Assembly: GCF_058153355.1 (NCBI RefSeq)
Contig: NZ_CM177019.1
Reading direction: 5' to 3' (one strand)
DNA: 64,000 nucleotides
Part shown: positions 40,569 through 53,320 of the stretch, one piece after another
Numbering within the stretch: the first letter of the stretch is position 1
How the letters are laid out: the number at the start of each line of letters is the position of its first letter
Notes under the pieces: model-generated
What the model saw: the letters and a program-made list of their open reading frames with translations, nothing else
What the model was told of the DNA's origin: nothing
Databases searched by the model: none
Translations under genes and position numbers: made by a program

Positions 40569-41342
40569 TTAACAATTTCTGGTCGTGCATAAAATCAGGA
40601 ACTGGAGTGGTGACGTTACTATATCCAGCGTAAGAGTGACTGGTAGCAGTGCATTAGCGAGGCCGCGCGGAACGCCATCAGTTGCTTTGTACTTATAAAA
40701 TCCCACCGTAAAGGGTTGATGGAAAACCATCACGTTTGAGTAATCCGCTTTTTTATTTTTCTGGTGGATAGAGCCTTTCAGGCCGTCAAGTGCCCAGGTA
40801 CAACGCTGGGTATTACAAATAAAACCATATTGTGTCGCCAGTGCTTTATCTTCCTCATTATCCCAGTCGTAATAGAGCGTTATTGAACCAGAAAAATTAG
40901 TATCACTGCTGCTTAAAATAAATTTCGCGTTATCGGAAACGGTGATTCTTTCGCCATGAATTGCCGGATCGTTCAGCATTTTAACCACCTCGCCGCCGCC
41001 CGTGGTCAACAGATAGTCCAACGATTCACCAACAAAAACATAGCCTTTCGTACCGTTACTATCCTCTGCCAGCGATAACCCCTTAATCGAGTCTGACCGC
41101 CATTGCTCGGCATGTGGAGGACTTGCGGTATTGGAAACCAACCCCCAAGTGAGACAACCGGTCAACGCAAATGCCAAAGAACACAAACCGGCAGCCTTAA
41201 AAAATCCCTTAAAATTCAACTTTATGACTAATCCTTTAAACGAGTAGCTAAGCCGTTGAAAGCATACTCTTCTTTCCCTCCTGTTTAGCGCCTGATATCC
41301 CTTTTCAGATTTCTGCCCGACGCATGTCATTTTTTTATGCAT
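40569..41342 (-). CDS. yidX: Putative lipoprotein
   Basis: Lipobox [11 protein letters not shown]-track N-terminus probably over-extended, true start uncertain (about 41220-41330). Confidence 0.7.
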
Positions 41343-41359
41343 TGTTCTTTTTGTGATCT

Positions 41360-41440
41360 AAATTGTAGTACAACAATATAACTTTGTACTACATTACGCA
41401 TACAGCAAACGCGAACGTCATCACGCTGGTACTACAAAAT
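41360..41440. promoter_or_regulatory. Candidate DgoR operator repeats in dgo promoter (three TTGTAnTACAA-like sites)
   Basis: aattgtagtacaa, tttgtactaca, tggtactacaa directly upstream of dgoR. Confidence 0.5.
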
Positions 41441-41502
41441 TGCCGCGTTATGCATCGATCGGGGTAAAGTAGAGAAGTACATACAGAGCACAAGGACTCT
41501 CC

Positions 41503-42192
41503 ATGACTCTCAATAAAACCGATCGCATCGTCATTACGCTGGGCAAACAGATCGTTCACGGCAAATACGTGCCAGGCTCGCCGCTTCCGGCCGAGGCGGA
41601 ACTTTGTGAGGAGTTTGCAACCTCGCGCAACATCATCCGTGAGGTGTTTCGTTCGCTGATGGCGAAGCGGCTGATTGAAATGAAACGTTATCGCGGGGCG
41701 TTTGTGGCACCGCGTAATCAGTGGAATTACCTCGATACTGACGTGCTGCAATGGGTGCTGGAAAACGACTACGACCCACGGCTTATCAGTGCAATGAGCG
41801 AAGTGCGAAATCTGGTGGAACCGGCGATTGCCCGTTGGGCGGCAGAGCGCGCGACTTCCAGCGATCTGGCGCAGATTGAATCAGCGCTGAACGAGATGAT
41901 CGCCAACAATCAGGACCGCGAAGCGTTTAACGAAGCGGATATTCGCTATCACGAGGCGGTACTGCAATCAGTGCATAACCCGGTGTTACAGCAACTTAGC
42001 ATTGCGATTAGTTCATTACAGCGGGCGGTTTTTGAACGAACCTGGATGGGCGATGAGGCCAACATGCCGCAAACGCTCCAGGAACATAAGGCGCTGTTTG
42101 ATGCGATACGGCATCAGGACGGCGATGCGGCAGAGCAGGCGGCGCTTACCATGATCGCCAGCTCGACACGAAGGTTAAAGGAAATCACATGA
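41503..42192 (+). CDS. dgoR: GntR/FadR-family repressor of D-galactonate operon
   Basis: 229 aa, N-terminal wHTH, operon context. Confidence 0.9.
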   Translation: MTLNKTDRIVITLGKQIVHGKYVPGSPLPAEAELCEEFATSRNIIREVFRSLMAKRLIEMKRYRGAFVAPRNQWNYLDTDVLQWVLENDYDPRLISAMSEVRNLVEPAIARWAAERATSSDLAQIESALNEMIANNQDREAFNEADIRYHEAVLQSVHNPVLQQLSIAISSLQRAVFERTWMGDEANMPQTLQEHKALFDAIRHQDGDAAEQAALTMIASSTRRLKEIT

Positions 42193-43067
42193 CAGCTCGC
42201 TACATCGCAATTGACTGGGGATCGACCAATCTGCGCGCCTGGCTTTATCAGGGCGACCACTGCCTGGACAGCAGGCAATCAGAAGCAGGCGTTACGCGTC
42301 TGAACGGAAAATCTCCGGCTGCGGTGTTAGCAGAAGTGACGACCGACTGGTGTGAAGAGAATACGCCAGTGGTGATGGCAGGAATGGTTGGCAGCAATGT
42401 CGGCTGGAAAGTTGCGCCGTATTTATCTGTTCCTGCCCGTTTTTCGTCTATTGGCGAACAATTAACGTCTGTTGGCGACAATATCTGGATTATTCCCGGA
42501 TTATGCGTTTCTCATGATGATAACCACAATGTGATGCGCGGCGAAGAAACACAATTGATCGGCGCGCGTGCTTTGGCTCCTTCCTCTCTTTATGTCATGC
42601 CCGGTACGCATTGCAAATGGGTGCAGGCCGATAGCCAGCAAATCAACGATTTTCGCACCGTGATGACCGGTGAATTACATCATTTACTGTTAAATCATTC
42701 ATTGATTGGCGCAGGTTTACCACCGCAGGAAAACTCTGCCGATGCCTTCGCGGCTGGCCTTGAGCGTGGTCTCAATGCGCCCGCCATATTGCCGCAGCTT
42801 TTTGAAGTTCGTGCCTCGCATGTGCTGGGAACACTTCCCCGTGAACAGGTCAGCGAATTTCTCTCTGGTTTGTTGATTGGCGCAGAGGTCGCCAGTATGC
42901 GCGACTACGTGGTCCATCAACACGCCATCACCCTTGTCGCCGGAACATCGCTGACTGCACGCTACCAGCAAGCCTTTCAGGCGATGGGTTGCGACGTGAC
43001 GGCGGTGGCGGGCGACACGGCATTTCAGGCTGGTATAAGGAGCATCGCTCATGCAGTGGCAAACTAA
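42189..43067 (+). CDS. dgoK: 2-dehydro-3-deoxygalactonokinase
   Basis: 292 aa, overlaps dgoR stop. Confidence 0.9.
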   Translation: MTARYIAIDWGSTNLRAWLYQGDHCLDSRQSEAGVTRLNGKSPAAVLAEVTTDWCEENTPVVMAGMVGSNVGWKVAPYLSVPARFSSIGEQLTSVGDNIWIIPGLCVSHDDNHNVMRGEETQLIGARALAPSSLYVMPGTHCKWVQADSQQINDFRTVMTGELHHLLLNHSLIGAGLPPQENSADAFAAGLERGLNAPAILPQLFEVRASHVLGTLPREQVSEFLSGLLIGAEVASMRDYVVHQHAITLVAGTSLTARYQQAFQAMGCDVTAVAGDTAFQAGIRSIAHAVAN

Positions 43068-43668
43068 ACTCCCGCTGATCGCCATTTTGCGCGGTATTAC
43101 GCCCGACGAGGCGCTGGCGCATGTTGGCGCGGTGATTGACGCTGGGTTCGACGCGGTTGAAATCCCTCTGAATTCCCCACAATGGGAACAAAGCATTCCC
43201 GCCATCGTTGATGCGTATGGCGACAAGGCGTTGATTGGCGCAGGTACGGTACTGAAACCTGAACAGGTCGATGCGCTCGCCAGGATGGGCTGTCAGCTCA
43301 TCGTTACGCCCAATATCCATAGTGAAGTGATCCGCCGCGCGGTGGGCTATGGCATGACCGTTTGCCCCGGCTGCGCGACGGCGACAGAAGCCTTTACCGC
43401 GATCGACGCGGGCGCTCAGGCGCTGAAAATATTCCCGTCATCGGCTTTTGGGCCGCAATACATCAAAGCGTTAAAAGCGGTATTACCGCAGGACATCCCG
43501 GTCTTTGCCGTAGGCGGTGTGACGCCAGAAAACCTGGCGCAGTGGATAGACGCAGGTTGTGCAGGGGCGGGCTTAGGCAGCGATCTCTATCGCGCCGGGC
43601 AGTCCGTAGAACGCACCGCGCAGCAGGCAGCAGCATTTGTTAAGGCGTATCGAGAGGCAGTGCAATGA
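43051..43668 (+). CDS. dgoA: 2-dehydro-3-deoxy-6-phosphogalactonate aldolase
   Basis: 205 aa KDPG-aldolase-like. Confidence 0.9.
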
Positions 43669-44702
43669 AAATCACCAACATTACTACGTATCGTTTACCT
43701 CCCCGCTGGATGTTCCTGAAAATTGAAACTGATGAAGGCGTGGTCGGTTGGGGCGAGCCCGTGATCGAAGGCCGCGCTCGTACGGTGGAAGCGGCAGTTC
43801 ACGAGCTGAGTGACTATTTGATTGGTCAGGATCCATCGCGCATCAATGACTTATGGCAAGTGATGTATCGCGCCGGATTTTATCGTGGCGGTCCGATTCT
43901 GATGAGCGCCATCGCCGGGATCGACCAGGCGTTATGGGATATCAAAGGTAAAGTGCTGAATGCGCCGGTCTGGCAACTGATGGGCGGCCTGGTTCGCGAC
44001 AAAATTAAAGCCTACAGTTGGGTCGGCGGCGATCGTCCGGCGGATGTTATCGACGGCATTAAAACGCTACGCGAAATCGGCTTCGATACCTTCAAACTGA
44101 ACGGTTGTGAAGAACTGGGATTGATTGATAACTCCCGCGCGGTAGATGCGGCGGTCAACACCGTGGCACAAATTCGTGAAGCTTTTGGCAATCAGATTGA
44201 GTTTGGTCTTGATTTCCACGGTCGCGTCAGCGCGCCGATGGCGAAAGTGCTGATTAAAGAACTGGAACCGTATCGCCCTCTGTTTATTGAAGAGCCGGTG
44301 CTGGCGGAACAAGCCGAATACTACCCGAAACTGGCAGCACAAACTCACATCCCACTGGCGGCGGGTGAGCGCATGTTCTCACGTTTCGATTTTAAACGTG
44401 TGCTGGAAGCTGGCGGTATTTCGATTCTGCAACCCGATCTTTCTCACGCAGGTGGTATTACCGAATGCTACAAAATTGCCGGAATGGCGGAAGCCTATGA
44501 CGTGACCCTTGCGCCGCACTGTCCGCTCGGCCCGATTGCACTGGCGGCTTGCCTGCATATCGACTTTGTTTCCTATAACGCGGTACTTCAGGAACAAAGT
44601 ATGGGCATTCATTACAACAAAGGCGCGGAGTTACTCGACTTTGTGAAAAATAAAGAAGACTTCAGCATGGTCGGTAATGCCGATCAGTTAAGGATCAGTT
44701 GA
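43665..44702 (+). pseudogene. dgoD: D-galactonate dehydratase, 3'-truncated by IS4 (last 9 codons read into the IS)
   Basis: Enolase-superfamily protein [31 protein letters not shown]...; ORF is 345 aa versus the ~382 aa I recall; reading frame crosses IS4 end at 44675. Confidence 0.8.
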
Positions 44703-46100
44703 CCGATCCAGTGGCTGTGTAAGAATCCGGAAACGCTCACTTGTTTCCGGATTTTTTTATGCACATTGGACAGGCTCTTGATCTGGTATCCCGTTACGAT
44801 TCTCTGCGTAACCCACTGACTTCTCTGGGGGATTACCTCGACCCCGAACTCATCTCTCGTTGCCTTGCCGAATCAGGTACTGTAACGCTACGCAAGCGCC
44901 GTCTTCCCCTCGAAATGATGGTCTGGTGTATTGTTGGCATGGCGCTTGAGCGTAAAGAACCTCTTCACCAGATTGTGAATCGCCTGGACATCATGCTGCC
45001 GGGCAATCGCCCCTTCGTTGCCCCCAGTGCCGTTATTCAGGCCCGCCAGCGCCTGGGAAGTGAGGCTGTCCGCCGCGTGTTCACGAAAACAGCGCAGCTC
45101 TGGCATAACGCCACGCCGCATCCGCACTGGTGCGGCCTGACCCTGCTGGCCATCGATGGTGTGTTCTGGCGCACACCGGATACACCAGAGAACGATGCAG
45201 CCTTCCCCCGCCAGACACATGCCGGGAACCCGGCGCTCTACCCGCAGGTCAAAATGGTCTGCCAGATGGAACTGACCAGCCATCTGCTGACGGCTGCAGC
45301 CTTCGGCACGATGAAGAACAGCGAAAATGAGCTTGCTGAGCAACTTATAGAACAAACCGGCGATAACACTCTGACGTTAATGGATAAAGGTTATTACTCA
45401 CTGGGACTGTTAAATGCCTGGAGCCTGGCGGGAGAACACCGCCACTGGATGATACCTCTCAGAAAGGGAGCGCAATATGAAGAGATCAGAAAACTGGGTA
45501 AAGGCGATCATCTGGTGAAGCTGAAAACCAGCCCGCAGGCACGAAAAAAGTGGCCGGGACTGGGAAATGAAGTGACAGCCCGCCTGCTGACCGTGACGCG
45601 CAAAGGAAAAGTCTGCCATCTGCTGACGTCGATGACGGACGCCATGCGCTTCCCCGGAGGAGAAATGGCGGATCTGTACAGTCATCGCTGGGAAATCGAA
45701 CTGGGATACAGGGAGATAAAACAGACGATGCAACTGAGCAGGCTGACGCTGAGAAGTAAAAAGCCGGAGCTTGTGGAGCAAGAGCTGTGGGGTGTCTTAC
45801 TGGCTTATAATCTGGTGAGATATCAGATGATTAAAATGGCGGAACATCTGAAAGGTTACTGGCCGAATCAACTGAGTTTCTCAGAATCATGCGGAATGGT
45901 GATGAGAATGCTGATGACATTGCAGGGCGCTTCACCGGGACGTATACCGGAGCTGATGCGCGATCTTGCAAGTATGGGACAACTTGTGAAATTACCGACA
46001 AGAAGGGAAAGGGCCTTCCCGAGAGTGGTAAAGGAGAGGCCCTGGAAATACCCCACAGCCCCGAAAAAGAGCCAGTCAGTTGCTTAACTGACTGGCATTA
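44675..46100 (+). mobile_element. IS4 insertion sequence, copy 2 (1426 bp), no target-site duplication
   Basis: Identical to 21-1446 in opposite orientation; flanks tcagcatggtcgg / gaccgatttggcc do not match. Confidence 0.85.
44759..46087 (+). CDS. insG: IS4 transposase
   Basis: Same protein as copy 1. Confidence 0.85.
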
Positions 46101-46134
46101 GACCGATTTGGCCCCGTTCTATTTTTTAGTGAAC

Positions 46135-48600
<2,466 letters not shown>

Positions 48601-50034
48601 CTATTTCAAGCGATAGTAAAGCTCACGGTACGACTTCGCCGCGACCTGCCAGCTAAAATCCATTGCCATAGCCTGACGTTGCACAAACCGCCACAGTGAA
48701 GGACGGGACCACAGTACAAAAGCACGTCGAATAGCCCGTAACAGCGACCAGGCATTACTATCTTCAAAGACAAACCCACTGGCGACGCCATCTGCAAGGT
48801 TCTCAAGAGAACAGTCAGAAACCGTATCAGCAAGCCCACCGGTGCGCCGCACTAACGGCAGCGTACCGTACTTCAATCCATAAAGTTGCGTTAAGCCGCA
48901 CGGTTCAAAACGGCTGGGCACCAGAATGACGTCCGCGCCGCCCATAATGCGATGCGAAAATGCTTCGTGATAGCCAATCTGAACGCCCACTTGTCCGGGA
49001 TATTCCGCGGCCGCGGCAAGGAAACCTTCCTGCAACACCGGATCACCCGCGCCGAGTAGCGCCAGCTGTCCGCCCTGCTCCAGAAGGCCTGGTAAGGCTT
49101 CCAGCACCAGGTCGAGACCTTTCTGGCTGGTCAGACGGCTCACCACTGCAAAAAGCGGCACTTTATCGTCAACCTTAAGCCCCATTGCGATTTGTAACTG
49201 GCGCTTATTCTCCGCTTTATCTTCCAATGTATCGCGGGTGTAACGCGAGGCCAACAGTAAGTCCGTCTCTGGACTCCAGATTTTTTCGTCCACGCCGTTT
49301 AGTACGCCGGAAAGACGCCCTTCACGGTGACGCTGCTGCAACAGACCTTCCATACCGTAGGCAAACTGCGGTTCGGTGATCTCGCGAGCGTAGGTCGGGC
49401 TGACCGCCGTAATATGATCGGCATAGTACAGACCAGCCTTCAGGAAAGAGATTTGTCCGTTGAATTCCAGCCCATGAATATTAAAGAATGACCATGGCAA
49501 TTGAATGTCATTCATGTGATGTGCATAAAACATGCCTTGATAGGCCAGGTTGTGCACAGTAAACACCGACTTCGCCGGACGCCCGCGCGCCGCCAGATAC
49601 GCAGGCGCAAGGCCCGCATGCCAGTCGTGCGCATGCACCACATCAGGGCGCCAGAATGGGTCAAGCCCGCTGGCCATTTCTGCCCCAACCCACCCAAGCA
49701 GCGCAAAACGCAATACGTTGTCAGTGTAGGCAAATAAGTTGGTATCGTGATACGGGCTTCCCGGACGATCATAGAGATGCGGCGCGTCAATCAGGTAAAT
49801 GCCAACCCCGTTGTAATGGCCGAACAACAGCGTGATATGCCCTGCGAAGGTATCACGGCGAGATACCACCTGCGCATCGGTTACGCCACGGCGAATATCG
49901 GGAAATGCAGGCAACAGTACGCGAGCGTCAACGCCGTCTGCGATTTGTGCTGCGGGTAATGCCCCAATAACATCAGCCAGACCGCCGGTTTTAAGCAGCG
50001 GGAACATCTCTGAACATACATGTAAAACCTGCAT
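48601..50034 (-). CDS. glgA: Glycogen synthase
   Basis: 477 aa, [22 protein letters not shown]... Confidence 0.97.
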
Positions 50035-51329
50035 TATCGCTCCTGTTTATGCCCTAACTTCCGTAGCATTTCGCGCGTTACCAGCACGATGCCTTCTTCT
50101 GAACGATAGAAACGACGTGCATCTTCCTCTGCGTTTTCACCAATCACCATGCCTTCCGGAATAACACAAGCACGATCAATGACGCAGCGGCGCAGACGGC
50201 ACGAGCGACCTACCCATACTTCCGGTAACAATACGGCGGAATCAATGTTGCAGAATGAATTCACGCGAACGCGCGAGAACAGAACGGACTGCACCACCAC
50301 CGAACCGGAGATCACACAACCGCCGGAAACCAGTGAGTTAAGGGTCATCCCGTGGCTACCGGAGCGATCTTGCACGAATTTCGCTGGCGGTAATGATTCA
50401 TTGTAGGTGCGAATTGGCCAATTGCGATCGTACATATCCAGTTCCGGCACCACTGATGCCAGATCGAGGTTCGCTTTCCAGTAAGCTTCAAGCGTACCCA
50501 CATCGCGCCAGTACGGCTCGGCATCCGGGTCGGATTGTACGCAAGAGAGCGGGAACGGGTGCGCATAGGCCAGACCGGCTTCGGTGATTTTGGGAATCAA
50601 ATCTTTACCAAAGTCGTGGCTGGAGTTCTCATCGCGATCATCTTCTTCCAGCAGTTCATACAGATAGTCGGCGTCAAAGACGTAGATACCCATGCTCGCC
50701 AGAGATTTGCTCGGGTCGTTCGGCATTGACGGCGGGTTAGCGGGTTTTTCAACGAATTCGATAATTTTATCGTTCTCATCAACCGCCATAACGCCAAATG
50801 CGGAGGCTTCTTCAATCGGTACAGGCATACAAGCGACGGTGCAACGTGCGCCTTTTTCGACGTGGTCGATAAGCATACGCGAGTAGTCTTGCTTGTAGAT
50901 ATGGTCGCCCGCCAGGATCACCACATATTCCGCTTTGTAACGGCGAATAATGTCGAGGTTTTGCGTGACCGCATCTGCGGTGCCGCGATACCAGTTTTCC
51001 CCTTTCATTCTCTGCTGCGCTGGCAACAGATCGACAAACTCGTTCATTTCTTCATTGAAGAATGACCAGCCGCGCTGAATGTGCTGCACCAGAGTATGGG
51101 ACTGGTACTGGGTGATCACGCCCATACGACGGATCCCGGAGTTGATGCAGTTAGACAGTGCAAAGTCGATAATGCGGAACTTACCGCCGAAGTGTACGGC
51201 CGGTTTTGCTCGCTTATTGGTTAAATCCTTCAGGCGGGTACCACGTCCTCCCGCCAGTATCAGGGCAACAGATTTCAATGGCAGCTGGCGCGCCAACATT
51301 AAGTGATCGTTCTTCTCTAAACTAACCAT
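50034..51329 (-). CDS. glgC: Glucose-1-phosphate adenylyltransferase
   Basis: [33 protein letters not shown]...; ORF-track start 51365 is over-extended. Confidence 0.95.
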
Positions 51330-51346
51330 GACTAACTCCTTTTTTA

Positions 51347-53320
51347 TCATCTCTGGAACACACACAATCCGTGTGCAGGTCCCTGCCAGACAGCCGTAAT
51401 CACTGGGTTATCCTCTCCAGCGAATGGGGGAATGGCGTGCCACTCCCCAGCAGGTAAAACAATCTCTGTTACCTCAAGCGTGGCGTTAATTGCGATCAAA
51501 AAGCGATCCGAGAGCAGAATTTGCAGCTGTTTCGGCCCGTTTTGCCACTCATCCGTGCTTAAAGGTTGAGCATATCGATTTAGCCAACGGACATTGCCGT
51601 CGCCTTCTTCCCACCAGCGATTCTCCACCAAAGCGGGAATGCGCTTGCGCAGATGGATTAACGCAGCGGTAAATGCGGTTAAACCACTGCTTGCCTGCGA
51701 CCAGTCCAACCAGGTTAATTGATTATCCTGACAGTAGGCATTGTTATTGCCATGCTGGCTATGACCATGTTCGTCACCGGCCAGTAACATCGGCGTACCC
51801 TGGGAGAGCAACAACGTTGTTAACAGGGCGTGAATGCTGTCGCGCCGCCGTTCAACCAGGTCAAGAGTACCGCCTAATCCTTCTTTACCATGATTGTTAC
51901 TGTAATTGTTGTTGGTCCCGTCGCGATTTTCTTCTCCGTTTGCTTCATTGTGTTTATGGTTGAAGCAAACGCAGTCGCGAAGCGTAAAACCGTCATGCGC
52001 GGTGACGAGATTAATCGCAGCACTCGGCAGACGACCATTACGTTTAAAAACATCGCTGGAGGCAGCAAAACGCCCGGCAAACGCCCCCAGAGGCAAATCA
52101 TAATGCAGCCAGAAACGACGGGCAGCATCACGGAAATGATCGTTCCACTCAGCAAACAGTGGCGGGAAATTTCCCACCTGATAACCACCAGGCGCAATAT
52201 CCCACGGTTCGGCAATTAACTTCACCTGCGAGAGCACCGGGCAGTTCTGAATTGCGGTAAACAACGGAGCATCCTGACGGAACTCAGGCGTACGGCCCAT
52301 GACTGCCGCCAGATCAAAACGGAAACCATCGACGTGGCAGGTTTCTACCCAATAACGCAGGCAGGCGCTGGCATAATCCACCACCGCCGGATGACTCAAA
52401 TTAAGCGTGTTGCCACAGCCTGTCCAATTGTGATAATCACCGTCTTCTCTTATCCAATAATAGCTACGGTTGTCGATCCCACGCAGAGAGAATAACGGAC
52501 CGTCGAGGTCCAGTTCCGCACTATGGTTAAGCACGATATCAAGAATGACTTCGATACCCGCTTTATGCAGTGCTTTGATTGCATCGCGAAACTCATTCAG
52601 CGCCGTTTCTGGCGAGCAGGCATACGCCGGATGCAGCGCAAACATCGCTACCGGGTTATAGCCCCAGTAGTTACTTAACCCCATACGTTGCAGGCGTGGT
52701 TCGCTGGCAAATTGTGCCACCGGCAGCAACTCCAGCGCAGTAATGCCCAACTGTTTCAAATAGTTGATCATCACCGGATGCCCCAGGGCTTTATAAGTGC
52801 CGCGGATATCGACCGGGATCTCCGGGTGCAGATACGTTAATCCTTTGACATGGGCTTCATAAATGATAGTGCTGCCCCACGGCGTGCGCGGCGGGGCATC
52901 ATCCTCCCAGTCATAGTGATCAACCACCACTACACATTTCGGCGCAATGGCGGCGTTGTCGCGATAGTCAGGTTCATTATGACCTGCGTGCAGCAGCGGG
53001 TTATCTTTAAACTCCCCGTCAATTTGCCGCGCGCAAGGATCAATCAACAACTTCGCCGGGTTAAAGCGATGTCCCTCGGCGGGTCGCCAGGGGCCATGAA
53101 CGCGATAACCATAACGCAAACCCGGACGCGCATCCGGCAGATAACCGTGCCAAATGTCGCCACTGTGCCCTGGCAAGTCATAGCGATGTTCCTGGCCATT
53201 GGCGTCAAAGATACACAGTTCTACCCGCTCGGCATGAGCGGAGAAAAGTGTGAAGTTGACGCCCTGACCGTCGTAATGCGCGCCGAGGGGTGCGGGTTTG
53301 CCAATGGCGAGTTGTGTCAT
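51347..53320 (-). CDS. glgX: Glycogen debranching enzyme
   Basis: 657 aa GH13. Confidence 0.95.

Follow-up and report, generated by a model that had tools for sequence, protein, structure and literature searches.

An IS4 element in dgoD and a probable chromosomal inversion junction in a rare Escherichia coli lineage

The dgoD gene of the Escherichia coli lineage studied here is cut short by an IS4 element, beyond which the chromosome continues not with dgoT but with glgP in the opposite orientation. We propose, with a probability of roughly 0.8, that, after IS4 had inserted into codon 337 of dgoD, recombination with an IS4 copy lying in inverted orientation at the glgP terminator flipped ~0.3–0.4 Mb of chromosome. 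Under this model a first step would be the transposition of IS4 into dgoD codon 337, and a second step homologous recombination between this copy and the inverted copy at glgP. The resulting inversion would carry the 3' end of dgoD and dgoT away from the dgo promoter, and the arrangement dgoRKA-dgoD'-IS4-glgP-glgA-glgC-glgX-glgB-asd would be one of two hybrid junctions. IS-made pseudogenes and inversion junctions arising from recombination of one IS with another are ordinary, already known kinds of event, and both IS-mediated inversions and IS-made pseudogenes are routine in E. coli. All positions below refer to the 64-kb stretch of DNA that was analysed (the window).

The truncated dgoD gene and the dgo operon

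The dehydratase reading frame (43665–44702, + strand) was originally predicted to run into IS4 and to end at 345 residues rather than ~382, and alignment confirms this. The chimeric ORF encodes 345 aa, consisting of DgoD residues 1–337, eight IS4-encoded residues (NADQLRIS) and a stop codon located inside IS4. The remaining gene, dgoD' (43665–44674, + strand), comprises the first 1010 nt of a 1149-nt gene (382 codons plus stop) and is collinear with dgoD of E. coli N96 as far as ...CAGCATGGTCGG. The dgoD sequence ends at base 44674 (...GACTTCAGCATGGTCGG), and IS4 begins at 44675 (TAATGCCGATCAGTTAAGG...). Codon 337 is composite, with GG contributed by dgoD and T by IS4, while the next eight codons and the stop belong to IS4; the earlier count of nine IS-encoded codons was thus essentially right. 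When aligned globally with the N96 enzyme (382 aa), residues 1–337 are identical except for G49S. The ORF scores 620.3 bits (cutoff 311) against the NCBIfam equivalog NF010624 (galactonate dehydratase), covering profile positions 1–336 of 382 only. The same 345-aa product is also called on the Logan contigs of SRR31441161 and SRR28786219. Judged by sequence, the dgoD of the window is a truncated member of the DgoD family and an IS4-made pseudogene.

The cut falls inside the MR_MLE_C domain. In the truncated protein the Pfam match stops at residue 323 (profile position 191 of 219), compared to residue 355 (position 218 of 219) in intact DgoD, so that the model loses its final ~27 positions and the window protein spans neither the 382-position family model nor a complete MR_MLE_C domain. 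The 45 C-terminal residues that are lost are well conserved: 32 of the 45 (71%, manual count) are identical in a Ralstonia homologue of solved structure (3RR1), which aligns with DgoD end to end, and the missing stretch includes PGLGVEID and APDWRNPLWRH..SVAEW. An alignment had been suggested as a check on whether catalytic residues are lost. None of the six residues concerned is lost, and what has gone is the C-terminal stretch of 45: D183, H185, E209, E235, H285 and E310, the metal-binding and acid/base residues of E. coli DgoD, are all present in the truncated protein. Hence, the damage to DgoD is structural rather than a loss of the active site. In enolase-superfamily enzymes the chain past the barrel goes back to the capping domain, and this, together with the conservation of the C-terminal residues and the interrupted MR_MLE_C domain, makes a loss of DgoD activity or stability likely. 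DgoD lacking these 45 residues is probably misfolded or inactive, while the retention of the catalytic residues means that some residual activity may persist.

An unrelated E. coli genome, GCA_900448625.1 (locus L020, 9242–9939), carries an IS1 in dgoD, located several codons before the IS4 site of the window. In that genome dgoT still lies directly downstream of the broken dgoD, making this an independent IS knockout of the same gene.

The original prediction that dgoR, dgoK and dgoA remain intact holds, with all three of full length compared to references. The yidX-dgoR intergenic region (41343–41502, + strand), the expected site of the dgo promoter and the DgoR operator repeats, shows a single mismatch in 160 nt to E. 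coli N96. dgoR (41503–42192, + strand) encodes a 229-aa protein with GntR and FCD domains that is identical to DgoR of N96 and EC42405. DgoR acts as a repressor of the operon at the dgo promoter, and DgoR inverted repeats overlap that promoter (PMC12288454). dgoK (42189–43067, + strand) encodes 292 aa that match the Pfam DGOK profile over positions 1–281 of 281 (E 3e-96), retaining the reference length with 2–5 substitutions relative to references, and dgoA (43051–43668, + strand) encodes 205 aa that score 338 bits against NCBIfam NF006600 (cutoff 207), with one substitution relative to each reference. The window therefore resembles the E. coli dgoRKADT operon in the order and overlaps of dgoR-dgoK-dgoA-dgoD, in the near-identical upstream region and in a DgoR identical to that of reference strains. 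It differs in that dgoD stops short and that IS4 followed by glgP replaces the downstream dgoT. Upstream of the operon, the longest yidX ORF (40569–41342) encodes 257 aa compared to the 218 aa annotated in references; this looks like a matter of start-codon choice and not a real extension.

No match to the 3' end of dgoD, dgoT, cbrA or yidR was found in the 64-kb window by blastn with 4 kb of N96 sequence, and neither DgoT nor the DgoD C-terminus gave a significant tblastn match there. DgoT is the D-galactonate transporter (PMC12288454). The reported absence of dgoT is thus correct for the window, but for the window only: the gene has most likely moved by 0.3–0.4 Mb, as set out below.

Two IS4 copies and the glgP terminator

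The element that interrupts dgoD (IS4-B; 44675–46100, + strand) starts TAATGCCGATCAG and spans 1426 bp, with terminal repeats TAATGCCGATCAGTTAAG and TAATGCCAGTCAGTTAAG that match at 16 of 18 positions. Its transposase ORF (44741–46087, + strand) is intact, encodes 448 aa (NCBIfam NF033592, E 9e-91) and has the same extent as the CDS in E. coli N25. IS4-B differs at 3 positions from an IS4 of N25, and at 3–9 positions from the IS4 copies of N25 and S21. It hence resembles IS4 (IS4 family, IS4 subgroup; insG in E. coli K-12) in its length, its imperfect 18-bp terminal repeats and its single DDE transposase ORF. In contrast to standard IS4, it lacks a target-site duplication and its flanks correspond to two insertion sites. 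The flanking sequences GAAGACTTCAGCATGGTCGG and GACCGATTTGGCC are unrelated, the left flank ending CAGCATGGTCGG and the right flank beginning GACCGATTTGGCC, with no repeat between them.

A second copy, IS4-A (21–1446, − strand), is 100% identical to IS4-B over 1426 bp, lies in inverted orientation and serves as an internal control. It is a simple insertion, bordered by a perfect 13-bp target duplication (CTGCCGACGGGCG at 8–20 and 1447–1459), within the 11–13 bp of IS4 target duplications. These two copies are the only IS elements identified in the 64-kb window. As the identical IS4-A has a duplication and IS4-B has none, the flanks of IS4-B derive from two different insertion events, and we regard this copy as recombinant.

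IS4-A itself lies within a hairpin resembling a terminator (AAAAGGGCTGCCGACGGGCGGCCTTTTTT), immediately upstream of the lpfA-O113 fimbrial operon. The 43-kb, dnaA-containing segment between the inverted IS4-A and IS4-B could itself invert. Within IS4-B, a 70-aa frame (45889–46101) is open through the right terminal repeat and is closed by a TAG made of the last two IS4 bases and the first base of the flank. If the reciprocal junction predicted below carries a 12-bp duplication, this frame would fuse in-frame to the last 45 dgoD codons.

To the right of IS4-B lies the right half of the glgP terminator (46101–46134, − strand), an IS4 hot-spot that begins with GACCGATTTGGCC, the would-be duplicated target. 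Next comes glgP (46135–48582, − strand; 815 aa), which heads the genes of the segment lying in inverted orientation to the dgo side. Beyond glgP the gene order is glgA, glgC, glgX and glgB, with the ORFs after glgB taken as asd, gntU, gntK and gntR from their size and position. In E. coli EC42405 the site is uninterrupted and reads AAAAAAAACGG GACCGATTTGGCC CCGTTCTATTTTTT, forming a hairpin and T-run just downstream of glgP in which GACCGATTTGGCC is present once. IS4 occupies exactly this position and orientation relative to glgP in 18 of 5,426 complete E. coli genomes. The flanks were read in two of the 18, revealing a duplication of 12 bp in N25 and 11 bp in S21; because these differ, the glgP terminator appears to be a recurrent, independently hit IS4 target. 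In both genomes IS4 lies between the glpD side and glgP, with yzgL (N25) or PstS-like genes (S21) as left neighbours. The window shares the position and orientation relative to glgP with all 18 genomes, but differs from the two inspected on the left in that its left flank is dgoD and not the glpD side.

The IS4-A and glgP targets have a common layout of an A-run, 3 nt, the duplicated 12–13 nt, 3 nt and a T-run, while the dgoD target is a looser version of it.

Evidence for an inversion and competing explanations

In reference chromosomes the two flanks of IS4-B lie at distant sites, and their relative orientation is the opposite of that in the window. On the EC42405 chromosome, the dgo side (window 41400–44674) corresponds to 8,465–11,739 (+), and the glg side (window 46101–64000) to 432,652 down to 414,753 (−). 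The junction therefore links 11,739 to 432,652 read backwards, an interval of 420,913 bp. The same arrangement is seen relative to R32_14_1F, where the joined positions are 57,280 and 398,757 and the interval is 341,477 bp; the flanks are thus 0.42 Mb apart in one reference and 0.34 Mb in the other. Leftward of dgo, collinearity with the reference is maintained toward pst-lpf, and window 1447–20000 corresponds to EC42405 5,099,306–5,120,073 (+), collinear with the dgo side across the record origin.

GC skew provides a test that is independent of any reference genome. In 4-kb windows the skew is positive from ~2 kb through 44,001–48,000, the interval that spans IS4-B, and is negative in every 4-kb window after 48 kb (−0.02 to −0.07). 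The sign thus changes at 44–48 kb and the cumulative skew has its maximum at IS4-B. A switch in the sign of GC skew is normally seen only at the origin or terminus of replication. The left part of the window holds dnaA, dnaN, recF and gyrB (domain calls on an identical contig), and on the K-12 map it is the origin-proximal side. On that basis the glg side has the wrong skew for its direction of replication, a mismatch that points to a recent event.

When inverted IS copies recombine, the stretch between them is flipped and a copy remains at either end (PMC5009759). The window matches IS-mediated inversions of E. coli and Shigella, and the pattern described in that study, in having an IS at the junction, distant inverted flanks and a lost target duplication. 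It differs from the usual cases in that only one of the two junctions is visible and in that the IS involved is IS4, an element that is usually single-copy and rarely active in K-12 (PMC5009759).

Separate assemblies carry the left half of the junction. Logan contigs of SRR31441161 (100% identity along 11 kb) and of SRR28786219 each assemble it independently, reaching 28 nt into IS4 before they stop. Contig AAXEGZ010000038.1 (GCA_015332025.1) is 43,222 bp long, equal to the distance from IS4-A to IS4-B, and ends 3 nt before the dgoD-IS4 junction. No complete E. coli genome among the 5,426 has the junction, and the best identity of the window to this set is only 97–99.4%. Three proteins of the window, namely DgoK, a 396-aa pentapeptide-repeat effector and a fimbrial protein, were matched exactly in no more than two NCBI E. 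coli assemblies and a handful of Logan runs. A Shigella origin, suspected from the limited identity to the complete genomes, was rejected because these lineage-specific proteins are labelled Escherichia coli and the two IS4 copies are the only IS elements identified in the 64 kb. Given that separate assemblies share it, we consider the dgoD-IS4 junction to be real and common to several isolates of a rare E. coli lineage.

The proposed inversion predicts a reciprocal junction, at which the glpD side would be followed by GACCGATTTGGCC, IS4, an 11–13-bp duplication ending CATGGTCGG, the last 45 dgoD codons (CGGCTTCTTTAAACCG...) and dgoT. Such a junction had been hinted at in the original prediction, where the inversion itself went unrecognised. 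The corresponding pattern (CTGACTGGCATTA-N3-10-GGTCGGCGGCTT) had no match in genome_contigs (species-representative genomes) or metagenome_contigs (JGI metagenomes); since a control pattern for the visible junction was equally unmatched there, this negative result is uninformative. Exact look-ups of an orphan dgoD 3' fragment in its 48-aa form starting MVGGFFKPL (M and T variants at residue 10) found none from the lineage; the records that matched were unrelated loci with a frameshift or an IS1 disruption, plus two short contigs of other samples. The IS4-fused dgoD 3' products expected for a 12-bp duplication gave no exact-sequence record. The GlgP and DgoT alleles occur in 81,612 and 16,502 blocks, respectively, and are too common to single out the lineage.

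The alternative that survives best, though we consider it unlikely, is a simple IS4 insertion in dgoD with the join to glgP being an assembly error across identical IS4 copies. In that case the dgoD 3' end and dgoT would follow directly after IS4, and the IS4 on the glgP side would have its normal glpD-side neighbour. The 100% identity of the IS4 copies over 1426 bp would favour such an error. Furthermore, the adjacency of IS4 and glgP comes from the window's assembly alone; every short-read assembly of the lineage breaks exactly at IS4, and the sequence beyond lies outside the reach of these drafts. Against a mis-join, the window contains two complete IS4 copies with unique flanks, so the assembly did resolve IS4 repeats, and a second, compensating mis-join would be needed elsewhere. 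The functional conclusion would barely be altered, as dgoD would still be disrupted and dgoT polar-blocked by the 1.4-kb IS4.

It is quite improbable that the genome has lost the dgoD 3' end and dgoT, whether IS4 mediated their deletion directly or a deletion came after an inversion. Such a loss would fit the absence of dgoT from the window and the fact that no dgoT-bearing contig of the lineage was found in the look-ups. It would also be tolerated: dgoRKAD' is without any match in 404 of the 5,426 complete genomes of E. coli, and this, together with the IS1-disrupted dgoD described above, indicates that the dgo operon is dispensable in nature. However, a deletion between direct repeats keeps the original relative orientation of its flanks, whereas here the flanks are inverted, and is therefore excluded as the sole event. 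On the K-12 map the interval from dgoT to glgP holds essential genes, so that it cannot have been lost as a whole. A simple deletion of dgoT was accordingly rejected, on the basis of both the flank orientation relative to references and the flip in GC skew. As the recombinant IS4-B joins dgoD to glgP in inverted orientation, dgoT is most likely moved, and we conclude that it is probably displaced by 0.3–0.4 Mb and not deleted.

We consider it very improbable that the inversion arose in one step, by intramolecular, replicative transposition of the glgP-terminator IS4 into dgoD. The end product would be structurally the same as that of insertion plus recombination, and the flanks fit both routes. 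However, the studied IS4-family transposases, those of IS10 and IS50, use non-replicative cut-and-paste. IS4 moreover rarely transposes in E. coli, contributing 8 of 758 new insertions in mutation-accumulation lines (PMC5009759).

Least credible of all is a pathway that still works, with truncated DgoD active and dgoT expressed at its new site from a neighbouring or IS4-borne promoter: the six catalytic residues are kept and the IS4 frame at 45889–46101 continues without a stop across the element's right end, but the C-terminal 45 residues are conserved down to the Ralstonia homologue, the last ~27 MR_MLE_C model positions are gone and there is no evidence of an outward promoter.

Predicted consequences and other loci in the window

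With insertion and inversion as the preferred reading, dgoT would be separated from the promoter that DgoR controls. The strain should hence be unable to take up or dehydrate D-galactonate despite its intact dgoR, dgoK and dgoA, and with neither uptake nor dehydration available we predict that it does not use D-galactonate. The original view that the pathway is likely broken is therefore well founded at the level of sequence, given the loss of 45 conserved residues and the separation of dgoT from the dgo promoter. What the present analysis adds is that IS4-B is probably a rearrangement breakpoint, with dgoT displaced rather than missing. In annotation, dgoD is best described as an IS4-disrupted pseudogene and IS4-B as a rearrangement breakpoint, not a simple insertion. 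D-galactonate use has been linked to E. coli gut colonisation (PMC12288454). The predicted inability of the lineage to grow on D-galactonate would thus add a minor detail about its niche.

For the study of chromosome organisation the inversion has modest relevance, as a large near-origin segment would run head-on to replication. On the K-12 map, the inverted segment would lie near the origin, inside a single replication arm. That a natural E. coli lineage with type III effector genes stably maintains a 0.3–0.4 Mb near-origin inversion in one replication arm is, in our view, unlikely. If true, hundreds of genes would be placed head-on to replication, and dgoT would lie beside glpD under new control. 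Being bounded by identical inverted IS4 copies, the segment could flip back and forth, or the inversion could have been selected.

Several other loci in the window were noted. A low-GC island (11600–16700; 0.31–0.39 GC) is located between phoU and yieH, where K-12 has the bgl genes. The island contains the 396-aa pentapeptide-repeat protein (12716–13906, − strand), annotated in sources as a type III effector, and an 815-aa ORF (14159–16606) without a Pfam match, the exact sequence of which is absent from a collection of 15 billion proteins. A second low-GC patch (0.41 GC) lies between ORFs whose size and position suggest tnaA and mnmE. At 26140–28325 it contains two ORFs, the first a 492-aa ORF that matches the N-terminal domain of the ShET2 enterotoxin (Pfam Toxin_15, E 3e-50), followed by a 221-aa ORF without a Pfam match.
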